This document shows, piece by piece, positions 6,001-58,855 of a stretch of DNA of 64,000 nucleotides. Location of the stretch: NCBI GenBank assembly GCA_040954595.2, contig CM082594.2, forward strand, positions 5,565,319 through 5,629,318, read 5' to 3'. The notes under the pieces are model-generated. The model did not search any database and had not been told where the DNA came from. It worked only from the letters and a program-made list of their open reading frames with translations. A program made the position numbers and the translations under genes. Positions within the stretch are counted from its first letter, which is position 1. Each line of letters opens with the position of its first letter. This stretch comes from Balanoglossus misakiensis. Taxonomy: Eukaryota; Animalia; Hemichordata.

Positions 6001-6105
6001 ATGACATAATTGTACATGCAAAGCGCATCTTTGAGGTCACGCTCTTTTTACTGTCACCCTGTTCCCGCCAAAAAATTTGATGTAGAAACCCTCTTTCTGT
6101 ACATT

Positions 6106-6247
6106 GAATACTTACCCACCAAACTTTCGGGAATTAATACCTCAGGCTCCGTTAATTGCAAGATTAGAACTTTTAGCCTAGACTATCCTGTGACCTGGGT
6201 CACAGGACCCCCTAGCTCCTCAGTTTAATACCTTGCAGAGACTGCAT
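6106..6247 (+). repeat. DIRS left inverted terminal repeat
   Basis: 6106-6227 is the exact reverse complement of 12739-12860 (122 bp). The match resumes after a short mismatch block (CAGAGACTGCAT, to 6247). Confidence 0.95.
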
Positions 6248-6624: not shown

Positions 6625-9102
6625 ATGGCTTCTCATTCGAATCGAACGTGTGATTGTGGTCAGCAGTTCTCACTGCTAGATAAGCATCGTCTGTGTTCCT
6701 TTTGCCGAGCATGCAAACAGGCTCAGCCTTGTGACATTTGCTCTTCGTGGACACAGAAAGATTGGTCTAATTTCGCCCCCTCGCTCGACGTTGCCACCGC
6801 GGACATCCCCGAGGCTGGCCCGTCATTGTCAATCTCTGACTTGCGAGGCGTTGGTCACGATCGTGCTCATTCGGCCGACAATACCAACACTGAAATTAGT
6901 GCCATACAGGGCAGGCAAACTCCTAAGAAAACGGACGTATTGCCTTCCCGTCATACGGTAAGTGATGCTAGACCACTATCGGAATTTTCCGAAGGGTTTA
7001 TTAACCCCGGTGAGACAACTCAGTTGTCTTCTCCCGTGGTTTCTGCCCGTGATATTTTCGCGCCAAACGGAATCACTTGCGTACAAAGTAGCAATTCCGT
7101 TCCCGCGCAATCTGCCCATGATATTTTCGCGCCAAACGGAATCACTTGCGTACAAAGTAGCAATTCCGTTCCCGCGCAATCTGCTTCCGTTGCTAGGGCA
7201 CCCGAACCGACACGTACTGTGACAAATAATCAGGTTTTCGGGGGGCCTTTTCAGCAACACACTGGAGCAGTTCAAACAGGGCCTGCCCCAGCTGAGGTAT
7301 TTCCAGGTTATCCTAACGTCAACCAATACCCTATACGGTACCAAGGTTCGATGTTTTCTCATGGTATACCTACTCAGGGCAATTTTCAGAGGGATTTCCA
7401 ACAATCCGGCACTTTTCAGCCGTATGGAAATTATCCCCAGGTGTTCCATCCGGGTATGTATTATCAGCCCCCGGTTTGGAATTACCCTAACCCTTATGTC
7501 TCAGGACAACAAATGTCGTACCGCCCTCCAAATGAGTCGAACGTTACGCAACCAGGGTTTCAGCAGCCTATCCCCATGGCAACAGGGCTTCCTATGGGAA
7601 CCCCAGACCAGATTGGGACTGTACCACTGCAAAGTCAGCCGTCTTCGACGGGAAGGCCTACCTCTCGGCAGACTCATCGTTCTGCCTCAGCGAGCATAGG
7701 ACATAGCGGCAAACGCGCACACGTCCCTTCTGCTAGTGTTAGTCGTCCTGGCGCCCCTAGCAACGGGTCAAGCCAGTCGACACATAGTGTACATACTGTT
7801 TCGGCAGGACAACCTTCAGCGGATAGATCCGATTATCAGGTTGCACGCGCCGTTGCTAAGAAACATACGTCTCAGTCTCGCGACGCACTTCAGCGTTATG
7901 CTTCTCCGGCGTCCAGTGAGGATGATGATGACGATATTGAATCGTCAGTCTCCCCCTCTCGCCGTAATGTCGTCGACCCTGACTCCCTTTCCGTACGCGC
8001 TCCCTCCGAGGACCGCGAGTTGGAGGGTAATGAGTCAGACGCGGTCGCTATCCAGTCGGTTGCCAGCGAAGCTAGGTCAACACAACAGGAAGTCGACAGT
8101 TATGACACACAGTCCAACATTGGAGATACTGGGTCAAGAAAGTCAGACAGTTATTTCCACCGTTGCTATGGGTATGTTTATGAGACGTTCGGGGAGGAAT
8201 GCCCTCCCCCTCCACTACCTCCTCGGCCTGAATCTCATGTGTTGGCGTTTGTCGATCCAACAAAGAAACAGACCGATCTCCGTTCACTGCCTAATTCTCT
8301 TGCGCTGAGTACCACCATAGAGAGAGTACAGCGAGAGATAGCAGGAACTAGCCCCAACACGCTGCCATTACCTATCGGTAGACTACCGGCAGCATCCAGT
8401 CTGTTGCGCAACAAGCGATATAAGACGCATGACTCATTGTTTTCGGCTGGCCTCCCTAAATTAGATGAGGACGCCGTCAAAGTGGACAATCAAGCTGGAG
8501 CATTTAAAACTGTCCCAATTGACCGCACGGCATTGCGGATCCTTGGACAGTCTGTTAATGCAACGGTGCGGACAATTTCGCATTTGGACTGGTTCGTGGC
8601 ACAATTAGTGCGCATCGCAGAGTCCCCTGAGCACCCCAGCCAGTTTGCGGACTTAACTCGAGCTATCGGTAATACCCTAGTGCATAGTCTCGAGTTTTCC
8701 GTTCGTAGTCATGCCATGCTTCAATTATTGGAACGAGATGCGTTTCTCAATCGCCCCTCCGTTCAATTAACCGATGAGCTTAAAGCCAAAGCACGTGTGG
8801 TGCCATTGGACCCTAAAGCTCTGTTTGCTGGCAAATTAGCCGGTTTCGCCAAGGAAGCCACTAAAGCCGTTCAGAGTAACGCTTGGCTATTTGGACGAAA
8901 CGGACAGAAAGTGCAGGACACAGGCGCGAATACGAATCGCCCCAAGCAGTCCTCCAAAAAGCCTAAAGCCGGGGGTAAGGCACAGTCTAAGTCATATAAA
9001 CCTCGTGCCCAACCCTACAACAAAGGCATTCGAAGTAAGCCGAAAAGGGCATTTCCTACTTCGACACCTACAACGTCTGGCCAGAAAGGTCAGCGCTCCT
9101 GA
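6625..9102 (+). CDS. DIRS ORF1, gag-like protein (825 aa from ATG 6625; frame open from 6355)
   Basis: N-terminal Cys/His cluster (CDC...HRLCSFC..C....PCDICSSW) as in DIRS gag proteins, a long low-complexity P/S/Q middle, and a basic C-terminus. It is the first ORF after the left ITR. Confidence 0.85.
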   Translation: MASHSNRTCDCGQQFSLLDKHRLCSFCRACKQAQPCDICSSWTQKDWSNFAPSLDVATADIPEAGPSLSISDLRGVGHDRAHSADNTNTEISAIQGRQTPKKTDVLPSRHTVSDARPLSEFSEGFINPGETTQLSSPVVSARDIFAPNGITCVQSSNSVPAQSAHDIFAPNGITCVQSSNSVPAQSASVARAPEPTRTVTNNQVFGGPFQQHTGAVQTGPAPAEVFPGYPNVNQYPIRYQGSMFSHGIPTQGNFQRDFQQSGTFQPYGNYPQVFHPGMYYQPPVWNYPNPYVSGQQMSYRPPNESNVTQPGFQQPIPMATGLPMGTPDQIGTVPLQSQPSSTGRPTSRQTHRSASASIGHSGKRAHVPSASVSRPGAPSNGSSQSTHSVHTVSAGQPSADRSDYQVARAVAKKHTSQSRDALQRYASPASSEDDDDDIESSVSPSRRNVVDPDSLSVRAPSEDRELEGNESDAVAIQSVASEARSTQQEVDSYDTQSNIGDTGSRKSDSYFHRCYGYVYETFGEECPPPPLPPRPESHVLAFVDPTKKQTDLRSLPNSLALSTTIERVQREIAGTSPNTLPLPIGRLPAASSLLRNKRYKTHDSLFSAGLPKLDEDAVKVDNQAGAFKTVPIDRTALRILGQSVNATVRTISHLDWFVAQLVRIAESPEHPSQFADLTRAIGNTLVHSLEFSVRSHAMLQLLERDAFLNRPSVQLTDELKAKARVVPLDPKALFAGKLAGFAKEATKAVQSNAWLFGRNGQKVQDTGANTNRPKQSSKKPKAGGKAQSKSYKPRAQPYNKGIRSKPKRAFPTSTPTTSGQKGQRS
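7042..7184 (+). repeat. 69-bp in-frame tandem duplication inside gag
   Basis: The unit starting TCTGCCC at 7042 recurs at 7111 with one mismatch and encodes SA(R/H)DIFAPNGITCVQSSNSVPAQ twice. Confidence 0.95.
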
Positions 9103-11182
9103 CTACCCAATATCGCTACCTCCCATTCCATCACCGGACATTCAAGTGGGAGGGCGCCTTCGTCACTTCGCCAACGAATGGCAGAAAGTGACAGACGACC
9201 AATGGGTGTTGTCAGTCGTTCGAAACGGGTTCAAACCAGAGTTTCTGACCGATCCTCCATTATCTTGGGACCCACCGCGTTTTGCCAATCGGGCAGGGCC
9301 ACGCACGTCGGCAATTGCCGAGGCAGTGCAAGGGCTGTTATCAAAAAATGCGGTACGGATTGTAAACCCGTCTATAGACGGACCGGGTTTTTACAACCAC
9401 TTGTTTCTCGTTCCCAAAAAGACAGGGGGGTGGCGGCCGATTCTAAATCTAAGACCTTTAAACCGGTTTCTCCGCATAGAATCTTTTTCAATGGAAACCA
9501 CTCGGTCCATACTGGCCGCGGTACAACCCGGCGATTGGATGGTTTCCATAGATCTCAAGGACGCGTACTTTCATATCGCGATCCACGAGGAATTCAGAAA
9601 ATACTTCCGGTTTTCAGTAAACGGAATCGTTTACGAATACACGGCTCTTCCGTTCGGACTAGCGTCAGCACCTCGCGTGTTCACCAGAGTAGTGTTAGAG
9701 CTAGTAGGGTTTCTTCATCGCCAATCTGTCAGAACGCATCCGTATCTCGACGATTGGCTGCTACCCAATCTAAGAAGAGACGTACTCGAGAAGCATGTCT
9801 TTCTAGCTTGGTCCGTTCTCCTTCGCCTCGGCCTTATTCCGAGTATGGAGAAGTCAGCCCTCACCCCATCACAAGACATGGTATTTGTTGGGATGAGACT
9901 TATGACACACGCAGGAATTGTTTGCCCTACCCCAGATCGAGTGGACAGACTTTTGGCTGTCATCAACTCAATCCTGTCTCGCACATCTATCCCGGTCAGG
10001 CTCCTGTTGGAAGCTATCGGGGTGATGGTGTCTATGTTGGCAATCATTCCCTGGGCACGCCTGCGTCTTCGACCAATTCAGCTGTACTTACTGGCCCTTT
10101 GGCGGCCATCTCGACAGCCGATAGATCACATTATTCATGTACGACCGGCTCTCCGTGTCCACCTATGGTGGTGGCTAGACACAGAGAATCTGCTGAAAGG
10201 TGTTCCCCTACGGGTACCACCGCCCACTCAGTTTCTGTTCACGGATGCTTCAACAACAGGTTGGGGAGCGCATCTGGACGAACTGACTGCATCGGGCAGT
10301 TGGTCAGTCGACCAACAAGAGCATCACATCAATTGGTTGGAACTCCAAGCTGTGTTTCTGGCTCTCAAATGTTTTCAGCGGTCGGTCACCAACCAGCATG
10401 TTCTGGTCAATTCAGACAATGCTACAGTGGTGGCTTATATAAACAAAATGGGGGGGACCAGATCCCCAACCCTGTGTTACCTGACTTGGGAATTGTTCAT
10501 GTGGTGCAAGAACCACAATATTCTCCTTCGAGCCCGTCATCTGCCCGGCAAACGGAATCACGTTGCCGACGCGCTGTCACGAGACCGCAAGGTGGTCCCG
10601 ACGGAGTGGGAAATTCCCCAAGAAGTAGCCAATCAGGTTTTTGCGAAATGGGGAACTCCCATGGTGGACTTGTTTGCGACGTTTCAGAACCGCAAACTGC
10701 CTCGGTTTGTGTCGCCAGTCCCAGACAGCAGAGCCCTAGCCGTCGACGCATTGTCGATGTCGTGGAAAAGCCTACTTCTGTACGCGTTCCCACCACTGCC
10801 TCTCTTACCACTAGTCTTAAGGAAAATAGTGGACGAGGAAACAACTGTGATTCTAATAGCACCGGTCTGGCCGAAGCGCTCATGGTATCCGATGCTACTG
10901 GACTTAATGATAGATCGACCTCTGGAGTTACCTCTCCGCGAGGATCTACTGTCCCAGGGTCCTCAACTGATTCATCCCGACCCAAGCGTGTTCAGACTTC
11001 ACGCGTTCAAGTTGTCGAGCAATCCCTCATTGCGAGCGGATTTTCTGAGACAGCTGCCGCCACCATCGCTAGACCTCAGAGAGCCAGCACCTTGGCAACT
11101 TATGAGGACAAGTGGACAAAATTCTGTGATTGGTGTGATAAACGGAGTGTTGATCCACTCACAATTTCTGTTAACCAACTAG
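8891..11182 (+). CDS. DIRS pol: reverse transcriptase, RNase H and adenine-methyltransferase-like domain
   Basis: RT motifs FLVPKKTGGWRPILNL, SIDLKDAYFHI, LPFGLASAP and YLDD. RNase H motifs FTDAS, HINWLEL, SDN and NHVADALSR. MT-like motifs DLFAT and YAFPP. The ORF-track start is TTG, and the first ATG (9491) lies inside RT. Confidence 0.95.
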   Translation: MDETDRKCRTQARIRIAPSSPPKSLKPGVRHSLSHINLVPNPTTKAFEVSRKGHFLLRHLQRLARKVSAPDYPISLPPIPSPDIQVGGRLRHFANEWQKVTDDQWVLSVVRNGFKPEFLTDPPLSWDPPRFANRAGPRTSAIAEAVQGLLSKNAVRIVNPSIDGPGFYNHLFLVPKKTGGWRPILNLRPLNRFLRIESFSMETTRSILAAVQPGDWMVSIDLKDAYFHIAIHEEFRKYFRFSVNGIVYEYTALPFGLASAPRVFTRVVLELVGFLHRQSVRTHPYLDDWLLPNLRRDVLEKHVFLAWSVLLRLGLIPSMEKSALTPSQDMVFVGMRLMTHAGIVCPTPDRVDRLLAVINSILSRTSIPVRLLLEAIGVMVSMLAIIPWARLRLRPIQLYLLALWRPSRQPIDHIIHVRPALRVHLWWWLDTENLLKGVPLRVPPPTQFLFTDASTTGWGAHLDELTASGSWSVDQQEHHINWLELQAVFLALKCFQRSVTNQHVLVNSDNATVVAYINKMGGTRSPTLCYLTWELFMWCKNHNILLRARHLPGKRNHVADALSRDRKVVPTEWEIPQEVANQVFAKWGTPMVDLFATFQNRKLPRFVSPVPDSRALAVDALSMSWKSLLLYAFPPLPLLPLVLRKIVDEETTVILIAPVWPKRSWYPMLLDLMIDRPLELPLREDLLSQGPQLIHPDPSVFRLHAFKLSSNPSLRADFLRQLPPPSLDLREPAPWQLMRTSGQNSVIGVINGVLIHSQFLLTN

Positions 11183-12075
11183 CGGAATTCTTTTTATTCT
11201 TACATAATGTTAAGAAATTCTCCCCGAGCACTTTGACTGTTTATCGTACCGCTATTGCAGCGACGATCAGAAGTGTCGGGGGTCCTGATTTTAGTCACAA
11301 TGCAGCTTTATCTGCAATGCTCAAGAATTTCAAGATTGAGAGACCCCCGTCGAGGCGGTTGGTCCCTCAATGGAGTTTGTCCTTGGTTCTAAGCGGGTTA
11401 CAACAACCTCCTTTTGAACCATTAGCTTCTATCAGTTTAAAGGCACTTACCCTTAAAACTGTCTTTCTTGTAGCGTTGGCATCTGGCAGTCGCAGAAGCG
11501 AGATTCATGCTTTTGGTGCCACTGATGGCTTGTTGACTATTAGTAAGACGGAGGCAGTCTTACGTACTAGGCCAGGTTTTTTGGCTAAGACCCAGGTGCT
11601 TGGTTCTGTAGCCACTCCCTTTTCCATTAAAGCTCTTGACTCCCTGACAGGGCCGGATCCACAAGAGCGTTTTTTATGTCCGGTACGTTGCCTTCGTTGG
11701 TACTTGAAACGAACCGAGTCCTTTCGTGCGGGTAGGACTAGACTTTTTCTACCTATTCCCCCCACTCCCAAAAAGGATATTTCCAAGTCCACCATTTCTA
11801 GTTGGCTCACTAAAACGGTTCGTTGGACTTATGATGAGAGTTCAGAAACTGACCGTCGCCTTACCAGAGTGACAGCCCATGAGGTTAGGGCTATCTCTGC
11901 TTCACTGGTGTATTCAGCTGGTGTTCCTGCTGACGATGTCCTTCGTGCAGGTACATGGCGCTCACCTAATTCCTTTGTCAGTTTTTATCTTCGGGATATG
12001 GCTTCAGAATCGGACGGTTTGTTTTCCCTTGGTCCGATTTCCGTTGGCCAGCAGGTTGTCATTCCTGGTAAATAA
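9178..12075 (+). CDS. DIRS tyrosine recombinase ORF (YR domain in the C-terminal third; N-terminal part overlaps pol in another frame)
   Basis: Catalytic set R (ASGSRRSEI), K (LAKTQ), HxxR (AHEVRA), W (AGTW) and Y (SFYL). It is preceded by a phage-integrase SAM-like region (STLATYEDKWTKFCDWC...SPSTLTVYRTAI). Confidence 0.93.
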   Translation: MAESDRRPMGVVSRSKRVQTRVSDRSSIILGPTAFCQSGRATHVGNCRGSARAVIKKCGTDCKPVYRRTGFLQPLVSRSQKDRGVAADSKSKTFKPVSPHRIFFNGNHSVHTGRGTTRRLDGFHRSQGRVLSYRDPRGIQKILPVFSKRNRLRIHGSSVRTSVSTSRVHQSSVRASRVSSSPICQNASVSRRLAATQSKKRRTREACLSSLVRSPSPRPYSEYGEVSPHPITRHGICWDETYDTRRNCLPYPRSSGQTFGCHQLNPVSHIYPGQAPVGSYRGDGVYVGNHSLGTPASSTNSAVLTGPLAAISTADRSHYSCTTGSPCPPMVVARHRESAERCSPTGTTAHSVSVHGCFNNRLGSASGRTDCIGQLVSRPTRASHQLVGTPSCVSGSQMFSAVGHQPACSGQFRQCYSGGLYKQNGGDQIPNPVLPDLGIVHVVQEPQYSPSSPSSARQTESRCRRAVTRPQGGPDGVGNSPRSSQSGFCEMGNSHGGLVCDVSEPQTASVCVASPRQQSPSRRRIVDVVEKPTSVRVPTTASLTTSLKENSGRGNNCDSNSTGLAEALMVSDATGLNDRSTSGVTSPRGSTVPGSSTDSSRPKRVQTSRVQVVEQSLIASGFSETAAATIARPQRASTLATYEDKWTKFCDWCDKRSVDPLTISVNQLAEFFLFLHNVKKFSPSTLTVYRTAIAATIRSVGGPDFSHNAALSAMLKNFKIERPPSRRLVPQWSLSLVLSGLQQPPFEPLASISLKALTLKTVFLVALASGSRRSEIHAFGATDGLLTISKTEAVLRTRPGFLAKTQVLGSVATPFSIKALDSLTGPDPQERFLCPVRCLRWYLKRTESFRAGRTRLFLPIPPTPKKDISKSTISSWLTKTVRWTYDESSETDRRLTRVTAHEVRAISASLVYSAGVPADDVLRAGTWRSPNSFVSFYLRDMASESDGLFSLGPISVGQQVVIPGK

Positions 12076-12119: not shown

Positions 12120-12210
12120 TTCCCGAAAGTTTGGTGGGTAAGTATTCAATGTACAGAATTGAAGTTTATTTCTAAACTAATTTCTGTAACATTAGAATAC
12201 TTACCCACCA
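12120..12210 (+). repeat. DIRS internal complementary region (ICR)
   Basis: 12120-12158 is the reverse complement of the left end (6095-6133). 12159-12210 is the reverse complement of the right end (12845-12896). Confidence 0.95.
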
Positions 12211-12718
12211 TTCCCACCCGCCTCCCCACTAGGTGTTGTCTGAATATTTATTGTACCTGGGGACGTATTGTTACTTACGGTCAAACCTGTGTTGGTGACC
12301 ACCTGTACTCCCCACCAGGTATTGTTCGGATATTTTATTTTACCTGGGGACGTATTATTACCATAGACAGTATGTCTATGTTATTACTTAACGGTCAAGC
12401 CTGTGTTGGTGACCACCTCTATAGGAGTGATCTCCTCTATATTATGGTCACTTTGTTTTTTGTCTGCCTATGCAATTACATGTGCATTTATTGACTTGTC
12501 TATTTAGACCACCTGTCTATTACGGCCAGTTTAGGAGATCCGTTGACAGACAGGACCCTATGGGCTATTTTTGACTGTTAGTTTTTTGGTGGGTGTATTA
12601 TTGTTTCTACGAACATATGGATCACCGTTCTTGTTTGCTTTTGGCACCTGGCGGTTATCTGGGTTTTTTGTTTGTGGAATTATCATTCTCTAGCTGTCGT
12701 ACTCTAAAGAGCGCATTC

Positions 12719-12896
12719 ATGCAGTCTCTGGCGGAGTATAAACTGAGGAGCTAGGGGGTCCTGTGACCCAGGTCACAGGATAGTCTAGGCTAAAAGTTCT
12801 AATCTTGCAATTAACGGAGCCTGAGGTATTAATTCCCGAAAGTTTGGTGGGTAAGTATTCTAATGTTACAGAAATTAGTTTAGAAATAAACTTCAA
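12719..12896 (-). repeat. DIRS right inverted terminal repeat plus right extension (rE)
   Basis: 12719-12860 is inverted relative to the left ITR. 12861-12896 is unique to the right end but complementary to the ICR. Confidence 0.93.
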
Positions 12897-13686
12897 TTCT
12901 TCTTAAGCATTGTCGAGCCAGGTTCTTTTTTGCATATATATAGTTAAAATTTTCTTGAAATCCTGCAAATATTGCATCTGACATGAGTTTTTAGGTGAAG
13001 GGAAATAAATTTTAGACATTTTTGGCATGTCCAGTGCCTGTTTGGTGGAAAAAGATGTTTGGCGTTTTGTCAAGGTTTTGAAGTTGGCCTGACAGTGAAG
13101 TAAGCTACATGTACCTAGATGTATACTTCAGTATAATTCAGTACTTGTACAGTACTTATACAAAATATTGATCTATGAGTATGAATGACAGAGCTGAGAA
13201 AAGGCAGTGCAATATATTCAAGGCTAGGACTTCAATACTGTGCAACAGCTTTGCATCTTCATGCCTGCCCTCTTGTGTTAGTCTAAAGAGAACTTTTTGC
13301 GTCTTCATTCATGTGGATAGGTTTTGGAATTAACATCTTCAATCCATTTCTCAGTGCAAGCAATCAACTAATCGAATTATGTAGTGAAAGGGCGAGAGAA
13401 ACGGAGACGAAATGTGAGATGTGAAAATTGATGAAGCACCATATATACTATACACTGTATTTGAAATAAAGCCTAATAACTGAGGGGCGAGTTGTACAAC
13501 ATCCTTAAGGTTTCGAATTCATGGCTGTATGGACAAAGCACTGTAATACTGACTTGCTGCTGATCTTTGATTGATGGAAGTTTGATTTTTTCTGATGAAA
13601 GAGTTTATATTCTTGTGCTTGTTTAATTAAGGAACATGCTGCATCCACTCAATACTAACATATTTTTTCTTTTCTTTTCTTTTCAG

Positions 13687-31897: not shown

Positions 31898-34800
31898 GGG
31901 GGCCGTAGGGAAAGGTGGAAACCAACTAAAATTCTGACGGTGGAGGATGGGGTTACTTAAAGGGACAAAGTCTCTCTCTCTCACTCTTCTTTTCCCATTT
32001 ATTATGTTTGATTCACTACACTGTCTATGCTAATGCACATGTGGATATATAGTGAATCAACATTCAACCATCACGTTTGTAGGATATGAGAGTAAAAATC
32101 TCGCCAAAATGAATAAATGGTAAACACCGAATATTCATTTTGCTCTCGCGTCTACAAGTGGGATGGAAGGTGTGTGTGGTTGAACTTTGAGTAAAATTTC
32201 TACATAATGTTTACCATAGAGATTTTCAAAGTCACTAAATTTGGCGGCCATTTTGAATGCCATAGACTAAGCACAGATATAGGCGGCCATTTTGAATCTC
32301 AAATTTGGCGGCCATTTTGAAAGTCTTAAGACAATTTTGAAAAGACCCCCCCCCCCCCCCCCCCCCCCCCACTCCCCCCGAATTTAATGAGTAAATGAAA
32401 AATTATTTTCGGCAAGAAATGAATAATCTAAAGTAGCCAAAAATGAATAATCAGTGTTTACCATTTATTCATTTTGGCGAGATTTTTACTCTCACATCTA
32501 TATGCAGGATGGAAGTTGTTTGTGGTTGAACGTTGATTCACTATATACATGTATTCACATGTACTGAACATCAATGGTGTCTTGTATCAAACATACTTGA
32601 TGGGAAAAGGGCAGCAAGAGAGAGACTTTGTCCTTTTAATTTCAACTACCATTGAGACTGCATCTTAGATAACCCTATTGCTTTGATCTGTAGGTGGGGA
32701 CAGATCCAGGTGAACAGTTTACATTTCATTGGTGGGACCACGCATTCAACAAAGCTGCAAATGGTATCACAGTTGAAAATACACAGGTAAGAGCATCAGA
32801 GGAGAGGTGTGATGTATGTGAATATAGCTGAATTATCAATGTTTGGGGCATCACTGAAGCAATTAAAAACAGTGACAAAGGGGGTAACTTACCTTTTTAA
32901 GAAGTACATGATTTAGTCACGGTTTTCTTGTTTTTAATAACATTTTTATAAAGTTTTAATGCCGAGTAGGTCATTTTATCATTGTATCTTCACAGTTTTA
33001 ACCCTATTGCTACCGGGTGTCATAACCCGTTAGAGTCTCAAGTCCCATATAGATAGGTATCATCACTGGAATACGTATTTAGACAGTGTTGGTTTCTTTG
33101 ATTAGCTGCCATGTGTGTATTTAGACAGGGTCGTTTGCCTCAATCTAGCTGTATCCACTGTTTATGATCACCTTGGCCTGATCAAATTACCCAGCAGAGG
33201 CGTTTAGTATGTACTCAGCTGTTCAAATATTTGACATTACACAGTCTGATACCAATTCATTTCTCCACAGTCAAGTATGCCCGGGATTCTAGGGGGGTAG
33301 GAAAATAACTACGTTTCCTACTGACTTGGCACTGTTAGGGTTAATATTGTATTTTATGAGCTTAGTTTTTTTATTGTAAAGTGGTTTGATGTTTTTATTG
33401 ATGGAAATCGCTGTATAAAAATAAATTATTATTATTATTATTATTATGACAAGGCAAGAATGTGATTCTGTAAATAATAATTTTTTCTTTGGGATCTCTT
33501 CTTCTCCCCAGGATGGTGTCAAAGTGAAGAGCAGCTCAGATAAAAGGACCCCAATCCAGACCAAGAAGACAGCCATGACACTGGACAATAAATCAATGTT
33601 GTATGGAAGATTTATTAAGGTAAGTCGAACATGTACAGTGAAAATCTCTCATTTCCTCAGGACACACAAGGCAAGGAATGTGTATAGTGGTGAAATTTTG
33701 TCATATCTTCATTTGTAGTGAACACTTAAAAAAAAAAACAATTATATAAACTTTAGTGCAATTATAATAATGATCTGTGTCTCTGAAAAGCAAAAATTAT
33801 AATTCTATATGATTCACTAAAACTACCAGAGGTTCGATTTTACTGTAGGCCATAGTCCCAGATTGAGCTGGTAGTTCTCTGAAGATACACCGATGCCATG
33901 TCTATCAGTGCAGTTGATTCTTGTTCTTTTTCTTTCAGTCGGCCACACTTACACCAGAGGGTCTGCAGGGAATTGGAGATGATGGTACAAGTAGTGATAG
34001 TTCATCAGCAGAGAGTGACAGCGACAACCCAGAGGATAAATTTAAAGTGCTGACAGATGAACAGCTCTTCAAAGCTTGTGGTGGACTCACAGCTCACAAG
34101 TAAGTTCATGTCATTTCTTTTCTTAGAGAGAGTTAAAAAAAGCAGCATGGAGTAGATATGTTAAGCATATTAAGCAATCACTACTATCTTTGTATTTGTT
34201 TCAAATGTATATCAAATGTAGATGGTACATGTACCAGGTAAATCAACTTAAAACATTTCTGGTTACGTTCAACTTTGGCCAATCATAGGCAATATTTATT
34301 TTATAAATTATTAGGCCATAGGGAACAGCCTTTACATTGGCTAATTGTAAGTCTATTCTTAGTTCTGCTGCACTATTGTAATGTCAGTCACAGTATTGTA
34401 TAGTAGTGGAACACATACAATTCTTACTGCCTGAAATAGGTTTATGCTGCCTTGGTGAACAATAAGAATTTCATGCAGTAGACTTTTGTCATGTTTAATA
34501 AATTGGAGTTTGAAAGCTAAGAAATTGTGTCTTTTAAGATTCCATGTGATGGTGAGTTGACATTTTCACCCACAATGCATTTTATTAACCCACAATGCAA
34601 TGTCATTTGTTGATGTTTCAGGGCTGCACGGCACGGACATAAACTGAACGGAAAATTGCGACGGATCGAGGAACAAGAGAAGCAGCTTTTGAGGAATATT
34701 GGTGGAGACGGAGATTCAAAACCCAGCGATGAAATGAAGAGTACCGGCAAGAGTAATTCTTGCAAGAAGAAGAAGAAGAAGAAAAAAGCCAAGAAGAGAA

Positions 34801-35259: not shown

Positions 35260-36405
35260 GAGTAGAGAGTAAATCGTGAAAAAAAAAATTTTATTCTCAA
35301 GAAAGTAGAGTAAATCCTGAAAAATATTCTAAGTATTATTTCTCATTGAAAGTAGAGAGTAAATCCTGAAAATATTCTAAGTTTTTTTTTCCTCATTGAA
35401 AGTAGAGTAAATCCTGAAAAATATTCTAAGTTTTTTTCTCATTAAAAGTAGAGTAAGTATAGAGTGAAGCCTGAAAAATTTCTAAGTTTTTTTAAATGTC
35501 AAAGTATAGAGTAAAGCCTGAAAAATTTCTAAGTATAGAGTGAAGCCTGAAAAATTTCTAAGTTTTTTTAATGTCAAAGTATAGAGTACAGCCTGAAAAA
35601 GTTCTAAGTTTTTTTAATGTCTAAGTATAGAGTAAAGCCTGAAAAATTTCTAAGTATAGAGTGAAGCCTGAAAAATTTCTAAGTTTTTTTAATGTCAAAG
35701 TATAGAGTGAAGCCTGAAAAATTTCTAAGTTTTTTTAATGTCTAAGTATAGAGTGAAGCCTGAAAAATTTCTAAGTTTTTTTAATGTCTAAGTATAGAGT
35801 AAAGCCTGAAAAATTTCTAAGTTTTTTTAATGTCAAAGTATAGAGTACAGCCTGAAAAATTTCTAAGTATAGAGTAAAGCCTGAAAAATTTCTAAGTTTA
35901 TTTTAAATGTCAAAGTATAGAGTAAAGCCTGAAAAATTTCTAAGTATAGAGTAAAGCCTGAAAAATTTCTAAGTATAGAGTAAAGCCTGAAAAATTTCTA
36001 AGTATAGAGTGAAGCCTGAAAAATTTCTAAGTTTTTTTAAATGTCAAAGTATAGAGTAAAGCCTGAAAAATGTCTAAGTATAGAGTGAAGCCTGAAAAAT
36101 TTCTAAGTATAGAGTAAAGCCTGAAAAAGTTCTAAGTTTTTTTAATGTCAAAGTATAGAGTAAAGCCTGAAAAATTTCTAAGTATAGAGTGAAGCCTGAA
36201 AAATTTCTAAGTTTTTTTAAATGTCAAAGTATAGAGTAAAGCCTGAAAAATGTCTAAGTATAGAGTGAAGCCTGAAAAATTTCTAAGTATAGAGTAAAGC
36301 CTGAAAAAGTTCTAAGTGTTTTTAATAAGTATAGAGTGAAGCCTAAAAAATTTCTAAGTGTTTTTAATAAGTATAGAGTAAAGCCTGAAAAATTTCTAAG
36401 TGTTT
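35260..36405. repeat. AT-rich minisatellite of mixed 29-bp and 46/47-bp units
   Basis: Core AAGTATAGAGT(A/G)AAGCCTGAAAAATTTCT (period 29: 35942, 35971, 36000), optionally extended by AAGTTTTTTTAATGTC(A/T) (period 46: 35698, 35744). Copies at the left edge are degenerate. Confidence 0.95.
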
Positions 36406-36616
36406 TTTTTTTTTTTACAAAAAAGCAGACACCAAGGATTGAAATTTATTGTATTTTATTTCATTTTCATATTTCATATTTCATATTGAAATTTAACTCG
36501 TATTCACTTGTCGTTTCAGGTCTATCTGTTGAATGGTTGATGACCAATCGAAAGAAGTGGAGTCCAGCCGGGATCTGAAAAGACAAGGCAAGTGTTAGAA
36601 AATGCAAGTTATGTAG

Positions 36617-36830: not shown

Positions 36831-36989
36831 TCTTACTTCGGTTGAGCTAAGTTAAATTTTTTTTTACAAGTGCATTATGGGCATCATAATCTATGCAAGA
36901 TCTTTTCAGATGCAAAAGATCTTGCATAGATTAGGATGCCCATAATGCACTTGTAAAAAAAAATTTAACTTAGCTCAACCGAAGTAAGA
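36831..36989. repeat. Near-perfect palindrome, 76-bp arms, 7-nt loop
   Basis: 36831-36906 is the reverse complement of 36914-36989 with one mismatch. Confidence 0.95.

Positions 36990-44301: not shown

Positions 44302-58855
<14,554 letters not shown>

Follow-up and report, generated by a model that had tools for sequence, protein, structure and literature searches.

We are interested in how the pol and tyrosine recombinase (YR) genes of DIRS1-like retrotransposons are translated, a question raised by one such element of the hemichordate Balanoglossus misakiensis. The element lies in a stretch of 64,000 nucleotides (nt) from the forward strand of contig CM082594.2 (assembly GCA_040954595.2, positions 5,565,319 to 5,629,318), hereafter called the window, whose own numbering is used throughout. 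A sequence-only reading of this stretch had proposed that ribosomes arriving at the stop codon of gag have three outcomes: they would terminate and release Gag, shift by +1 and produce Gag-Pol, or read through and produce Gag-YR. Based on the window sequence and on statistics from related families, we lean slightly towards the view that the gag stop of the window element is a three-way site at which both recoding events occur. Whether such a switch operates across DIRS1-like retrotransposons, with the whole element expressed from a single RNA, appears to us an evenly balanced question. The three-outcome model draws on the frame layout, the leaky stop context and a slip-compatible codon, and neither splice signals nor conserved AUGs were found, but the proposed analogies to the antizyme gene and to an exact motif do not generalise. 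As read from these sequences, the weak-stop signature is statistically strong and the slip signature moderately strong.

The gag stop and the frames around it

The gag open reading frame (ORF; 6625..9102, + strand) encodes 825 amino acids (aa) from an ATG at 6625 to a terminal TGA and comprises an N-terminal cysteine cluster, a low-complexity middle and a basic tail. As the sequence-only reading had described, it ends CGC TCC TGA CTA CCC AAT at 9094-9111, with the TGA at 9100-9102. The +1 frame, read from 9101, begins DYPISLPP...VGGRLRHF and encodes pol, consisting of reverse transcriptase (RT), RNase H and a Dam-like methyltransferase (MT), over 693 codons from the junction (9101..11182, + strand). 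This frame is open from 8840 to 11182, ending in a TAG at 11180-11182, and its first ATG, at 9491, lies inside RT, 115 codons beyond the VGGRL motif. The zero frame continues past the gag stop as the YR frame (9103..12075, + strand), which is free of stops from 9103 to the TAA at 12073-12075, so that a single stop separates gag from YR. About 645 of its 990 codons overprint the linker and pol, and the recombinase domains occupy the last 345 or so. The YR-frame Met codons near the junction are at 9178, 25 codons past the TGA, and at 9202. These frames, together with the predicted product lengths of 825 aa for Gag, 1518 aa for Gag-Pol and 1816 aa for Gag-YR, had all been described correctly.

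The candidate three-way recoding site, TCC TGA CTA at 9097..9105 (+ strand), combines a pre-stop codon whose second and third bases are identical (XYY), the stop and a type II readthrough context; its putative function is deduced from the sequence and the family statistics. The window thus holds the UCC-UGA shift site as well as the UGA-CUA readthrough context followed by an in-frame coding ORF. The dominant contig among the DNA contigs of the same organism (run X1; 3.5 kb, covering 7119-10611) differs from the window at 13 positions, and none of the differences listed falls within 9094-9180.

Related elements were retrieved with an alignment of 64 pol proteins as the query and comprise the best 80 of at least 471 metagenome loci, as well as 20 loci in genome contigs. 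These 100 loci and the window make 101 sequences, and dropping eight without a junction left 93 junctions. The set was picked by similarity to the window element and is not representative of all DIRS1-like elements. In 79 of the 93 junctions, a long ORF terminates at a single stop, beyond which the zero frame runs on as the YR ORF and pol occupies the +1 frame; 7-166 nt separate this stop from the VGGRL motif. Such a recurrence argues that the arrangement is more than chance. Clustering at 70% pol identity divided the 79 junctions into 61 families, including the window, with a median pairwise pol identity of 39%. One locus (L034) was placed in this main class by hand. The tree was built by a quick method from the fetched loci only, with no named DIRS1 reference elements; two short loci (L018 and L077) are absent from it, and a broken one (L049) stands outside the tree counts. 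The sequence-only reading had called for an alignment of related junctions to see if both the layout and the motif are conserved. The layout, with gag and YR in the same frame and pol in +1, is conserved, whereas exact conservation of TCC-TGA-CTA has to be rejected, since TCC occurs in 4/61 and TGA-CTA in 6/61 families.

Some features of the sample count against the three-way reading. The definition of the main class partly builds in that both frames are open in the linker. In five of the 93 junctions (L002, L017, L039, L046 and L063), scattered over the tree, it is pol and not YR that shares the frame of gag, and in L078 gag occupies the third frame; these are either real frame-swapped variants or single-base errors. 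The five pol-in-frame junctions show similar stop contexts (TAA-CTC, TGA-CTT twice, TAG-CGG and TAG-GTT), and their YR frame opens upstream of the stop. As for the other junctions outside the main class, L015 and L071 have a damaged gag followed by the usual junction, the pol frame of L062 is interrupted by a stop in the linker, the YR frame of L070 and L074 by stops close to the motif, and no junction type is assigned to L030 and L050. L060 is one continuous ORF of 1626 codons without a stop at the junction. Continuous Gag-to-recombinase ORFs, also stop-free at the junction, are found in the homologous proteins P0163 (1773 aa) and P0155 (1480 aa). They may all be stop-loss mutants, in which case they count for little. 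The 20 genome-contig loci (L081-L100) are DIRS1-like elements in contigs of bacterial metagenome-assembled genomes, 11 of them from one Sedimenticola assembly, and most likely represent eukaryotic DNA binned with bacteria.

Probable readthrough into the recombinase frame

Readthrough at the gag stop is likely to produce Gag-YR. Across 53 complete pol ORFs, the YR frame contains 45 stops, compared with 1841 expected under synonymous recoding, whereas the third frame of the same ORFs contains 2331 against 1839 expected. The YR frame is open for more than 900 codons in 40/61 families and open to the contig end in 16; it is broken in 5. The first ATG in this frame is found at a median of 46 codons past the stop, more than 80 codons in 25/61 families and more than 200 in 14/61.

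The stop itself is also unusual in its composition. The 61 families end gag with TGA (40), TAG (20) or TAA (one), compared with 15 TAG, 13 TAA and 12 TGA at the YR stops of the same elements (n = 40; Fisher p = 1.5e-5), and TAA accounts for 147 of the 382 nearby out-of-frame stop triplets. The base following the gag stop is C or G in 53/61 families, as opposed to 15/40 at YR stops (p = 3e-7); TGA-C occurs in 26 of the 40 TGA families and TAG-G in 16 of the 20 TAG families. Both contexts resemble readthrough types II and III as listed in the covered part of PMC3159437. Sorted by context, seven families have the exact type II sequence, 16 have TAG-G and 19 another TGA-C. UGA-CUA, proposed as a leaky context, is present in the window, and the general leaky-looking signature recurs among the relatives, but TGA-CTA itself is confined to six of the 61 families. 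The scarcity of exact type II contexts (7/61) counts against the three-way reading. So does the pairing of TAG with G and TGA with C, which with 4-7 pairs was not separable from ancestry. Position +5, the second base after the gag stop, is C in 1/61 families although the linker is otherwise C-rich.

YR might instead be translated from its own AUG (9178 or 9202 in the window), by re-initiation or from a shorter RNA, with Pol made by a +1 shift and no readthrough involved. About half of the families do have an ATG no more than 30 codons past the stop, which often arises from a conserved pol Trp codon. However, the frame remains open in the 14 families whose first ATG is more than 200 codons away, and in P0121, an 83%-identical relative, V replaces both Met codons of the window. 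Moreover, the frame from the stop to the motif is open in 61 families versus 30.2 expected, partly by definition, and among the 14 junctions outside the main class, only L070 and L074 carry a stop of the YR frame in this interval. An independent start for YR is, in our estimate, decidedly improbable.

Splicing could supply pol, YR or both if, for instance, a donor within gag were joined to acceptors upstream of VGGRL or of the recombinase domain, which would make the stop an ordinary terminator. The CTGAC at the stop resembles a branch point, the linker is pyrimidine-rich, and one null model yielded a small excess of acceptor signal in the gag tail (2.82 versus 2.29 bits; reached in 0/60 simulations). 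The excess disappeared under a codon shuffle within the tail (2.82 versus 2.63; 22/100), and the best acceptor sites are scattered in both position and phase, the best of the window scoring -1.4 bits. No acceptor column scores in more than 8 of the 53 pol sequences, donors in the gag tail score the same as under the null, and AG is present at the motif in just 17/61 families. Scans with rough weight matrices identified no conserved acceptors in the gag tail, linker or pol, nor, over the final 60, 150 or 300 nt of gag, any conserved donors. A direct join of gag to the recombinase domain occurs in none of the 120 listed (173 found) long YR homologues, which is a weak test with mostly DNA gene calls. 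Splicing would also leave the stop-free YR frame and the exclusion of TAA unexplained. We consider it improbable.

A probable +1 shift into pol

A +1 shift at the gag stop is the likely route to Gag-Pol, although we hold this with less confidence than readthrough. The pol frame is open without any ATG before VGGRL in 25/61 families, and an ATG lies between the stop and the motif in 12/61. The overlap of the pol frame upstream of the stop amounts to 80.5 codons, compared with 76.5 from composition (12/100 simulations reach 80.5). A selected long overlap inside gag was therefore rejected as composition accounts for its length. In five families, the pol frame opens as little as 10-22 codons before the stop. 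Because the overlap is no longer than composition dictates and is short in these five families, the entry point into pol should be located near the stop.

The codon immediately before the stop is of the XYY type in 40/61 families, compared with 16.6 expected given the amino acids (z 7.0). It is represented by AAA (9), CCC (7), CAA (7), AGG (5), TCC (4), ACC (3), TTT (3), GTT (1) and CGG (1), and X also equals Y in 19/61 families against a background of 11.5%. XYY codons make up 25% of the gag tail and are found at 9-21 of 61 at each of the positions -2 to -12, at 6/40 YR stops and at 11/53 pol stops. The excess holds at 60, 55 and 50% clusters (at 50%, 17.1/28 versus 7.1-7.7). On the tree, at least 13 changes of the repeated base are counted. 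These numbers also bear on the view that the junction context reflects ancestry or sequence composition and serves no function, for which one could point to the labels shared by related families on the tree and to the low complexity of the gag tail. A signal confined to the codon beside the stop, persisting at 50% clusters and with so many changes of the repeated base is not what this view predicts, and we regard it as scarcely credible.

Several results count against the shift. The strongest component of the XYY signal is AA (16 versus 3.5), a known 5' stimulator of readthrough according to the covered part of PMC3159437, so that part of the slip signal could serve readthrough alone. The excess of non-AA XYY codons is 24.2 versus 11.9 of 61 at 70% clusters but becomes modest at coarser clustering (p 0.02-0.03). 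XYY is absent from 21/61 families, and some pol-frame ATG upstream of VGGRL, at scattered positions, is present in 36/61. The N-termini of 59 homologues, which may overlap the loci, do favour the shift in one respect: xAA-TGA-C/T read in the pol frame gives Asn-Asp, and this pair is present 15 times against an expectation of 3.2. In the same N-termini, however, [NFPG]-D is not significant (30 versus 23.0; 103/2000 shuffles reach it), and [NFPG]-[RS] shows no excess; both nulls add to the points against a shift.

Alternatively, readthrough would make Gag-YR while Pol arose by another route: through a frameshift at some other point of the gag tail, through re-initiation or initiation at a non-AUG codon once gag has terminated, or from a shorter RNA. 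All the readthrough evidence is independent of this possibility. The 21 families without XYY and the stimulatory AA at -2/-1 agree with it, as do an ATG or CTG in the pol frame of the linker in 27/61 families and, in a post hoc comparison, an upstream pol-frame ATG in 16/21 non-XYY versus 20/40 XYY families. Nevertheless, the non-AA XYY excess persists, the pol frame of five families opens only shortly before the stop with no selection on the upstream overlap, and 25/61 families lack an ATG before the conserved motif. We therefore find a separate route to Pol rather unlikely and continue with the +1 shift at the stop.

The sequence-only reading had likened the junction to the +1 frameshift site of the antizyme gene. 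UCC-UGA is indeed present in the window, but TCC precedes the stop in only 4/61 families, as one case of the XYY-stop pattern, and Rfam identified no antizyme element. Neither an antizyme 3' pseudoknot, a 5' stimulator nor any other frameshift element was matched at the junction with E values up to 1. Antizyme-style polyamine control of the junction is unsupported.

A predicted stem-loop at 9115..9157 (+ strand), 12 nt 3' of the stop, is a candidate stimulator in the window (-18.6 kcal/mol, z -3.0; 1/200 shuffles as stable). A separate clade with TCC-TGA (L011, L019, L020 and L042) has a predicted 14-base-pair stem 6 nt past the stop; around a variable loop, its four sequences, two of them identical, show one compensatory change and five one-sided ones. 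Against a general role, 3' folding is not stronger across the families (mean z -0.9, compared with -0.4 to -1.3 in control windows), and the 3' stem shows no covariation over 43 loci. A 3' stem acting as a stimulator in some lineages only is plausible from these structure predictions. Another candidate, a stem between the linker and the VGGR codons that pairs in 39/53, failed shuffle and partner-swap controls on 43 loci and was discarded. On the 5' side, a hairpin is predicted just before the stop of the window (9074-9095, z -3.1). The 70 nt before the gag stop have a family mean z of -1.4, the lowest of 13 windows, and the control window at +400 gives -1.3.

In the mechanism we propose, the gag stop would be a weak terminator at which most ribosomes release Gag and a minority either read through or slip by +1. 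Slow decoding of UGA-C or UAG-G by the release factor would let a near-cognate tRNA compete, giving readthrough to Gag-YR. The same delay could give the P-site tRNA on XYY time to re-pair on the overlapping YYU, giving the shift to Gag-Pol. On moving from XYY to YYU, this tRNA would presumably keep its middle pair, and its first pair as well when X equals Y. Since no protease domain was found in the element, both enzymes would remain attached to Gag, and Gag would thereby package them in a set ratio. Keeping the YR frame free of stops over the length of pol would then be the cost of reaching the recombinase by readthrough.

The element and its comparison with known systems

Its inverted terminal repeats, and an internal stretch with complementarity to either end, make the window element a structurally complete DIRS1-like retrotransposon as defined in the covered part of PMC3266345. 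The left inverted terminal repeat spans 6095..6247, of which 6106-6247 is 95% complementary to 12719-12860, and 6095-6133 is complementary to the left part of the internal complementary region (ICR). The ICR (12120..12210) consists of a left part at 12120-12158 and a right part at 12155-12210, overlapping at 12155-12158, and is 100% complementary to the two ends. The right inverted terminal repeat with its extension (12719..12900) shows complementarity to the left repeat and to the ICR. Rfam returned just three sub-threshold matches to microRNA families, on the ICR hairpin, and a scan against viral contigs gave 15 pattern matches and no relative.

In Pfam searches, the +1 frame matched RVT_1 (E 8.5e-20), RNase H-like domains (E 1.7e-4 to 0.03) and, short of the curated cut-off, Dam (E 6.5e-4). 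Weak Phage_integrase and SAM-like matches (E about 0.03) fall in the last third of the gag-frame ORF; their position fits YR, and the homologues agree. The gag ORF itself has no match in Pfam; it aligns at 21% identity over residues 6-797 with the N-terminal part of P0163. Near its N-terminus (6650-6750), we observed a Cys/His cluster, CDC...H..C..C..C.....C..C..W, which is also present in P0163, has no Pfam match and is possibly a zinc finger. An in-frame tandem duplication of 69 nt (23 aa) lies within gag at 7032-7169. The closest named proteins are from hemichordates, Ptychodera flava (85%, C-terminal part of pol) and Glandiceps talaboti (59%, YR).

DNA contigs of B. misakiensis (run X1) cover the element at a summed depth of about 300, which is not a copy number. 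Another contig, of depth 38 and present in two DNA runs on one sample, links both flanks without the element, with 47 other letters in between, and suggests an insertion polymorphism at 6092/12904. Together, the two observations hint that the family is recent and multi-copy. Between 12166 and 12647, the contig depth in run X1 rises to about ten times the value over the coding region, and loose contig ends are numerous; this part of the 3' non-coding sequence may also belong to a repeat of higher abundance or to non-autonomous copies. The same region contains a 31-nt direct repeat at 12277 and 12391. Elsewhere, the window has an array of 29/46-nt satellite units at 35300-36410, a near-perfect 76-nt inverted repeat at 36831-36989, a pair of 59-nt inverted arms resembling a miniature inverted-repeat transposable element at 32083-32498, and a duplication with a spacing of about 733 nt at 56376-57418.

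If our reading is correct, it would explain how the AUG-less overlapping pol and recombinase ORFs are translated and why a dual-coding overlap of about 2 kb is retained. The Gag:RT:YR ratios would be set from one RNA in an element without a detected protease. The gag stop would also be a natural site where the release factor, a near-cognate tRNA and P-site slippage compete, with both non-standard outcomes used and selected, and dozens of natural variants (AAA, CCC, CAA, AGG and TCC before TGA-C or TAG-G) would be at hand for comparison. Our reading further suggests that ATG-based annotations of DIRS ORF2 and ORF3 have wrong N-termini.

The element class and the pol/YR overlap are already known. 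DIRS1-like elements such as DIRS-1 of Dictyostelium, as described in the covered passages of PMC3266345, PMC5633606, PMC7192593 and PMC9210276, share with the window element the gag, RT-RNase H-MT and YR ORFs, the long pol/YR overlap, the inverted terminal repeats and the internal complementary region; the long overlap is present in half of the 28 elements in PMC3266345. Neither readthrough nor programmed frameshifting at the gag stop is mentioned in the covered passages of these four papers. The translation of pol or YR is not addressed in those passages of PMC3266345, PMC7192593, PMC5633606, PMC8547959, PMC6681497, PMC9210276, PMC3783388 and PMC2685390 that were covered, and the covered portion of the recoding review PMC5009743 does not mention DIRS. 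Our literature search, which left some key DIRS papers uncovered, turned up no description of recoding at the gag stop of DIRS elements, nor of readthrough and frameshifting together at a single stop, and novelty is accordingly provisional. The frame layout and recoding may well have been suggested already by Goodwin and Poulter (2001 and 2004) or Poulter and Butler (2015).

The covered part of PMC3159437 assigns UGA-CUA/CGG to readthrough type II (alphaviruses, tobraviruses) and UAG-G to type III (gag-pol of murine leukaemia virus, luteoviruses). The DIRS junction resembles both in its UGA-C and UAG-G contexts and in the in-frame ORF behind a leaky stop, and further in the predicted 3' stem of the window and of one clade. 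Unlike in those systems, the product would be a Gag-recombinase instead of a Gag-Pol, reached through about 645 overprinted codons, and the exact type II context is a minority among the DIRS families (7/61).

Known +1 shifty stops, given in the covered portions of PMC5009743 and PMC10235951, include UCC-UGA of antizyme, AAA-UAR of Euplotes and CCC-UGA of Listeria phages. As at the DIRS junction, the A site holds a stop and the preceding codon permits re-pairing in the +1 frame, and their codons AAA, CCC and TCC are among the commonest pre-stop codons of the DIRS families. In those systems, as described in these passages, the +1 frame is the sole extension used, whereas at the DIRS junction the zero frame past the stop is also coding.

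A release factor gene of a giant virus of amoeba, which we take to be of the Mimivirus type, offers a further comparison. According to the covered portion of PMC5009743, this gene uses readthrough and, separately, frameshifting, and so combines both kinds of recoding in one gene, as would the DIRS junction. In the viral gene, however, the two events occur at separate sites, whereas in the DIRS elements they would compete at a single codon and yield different enzymes.

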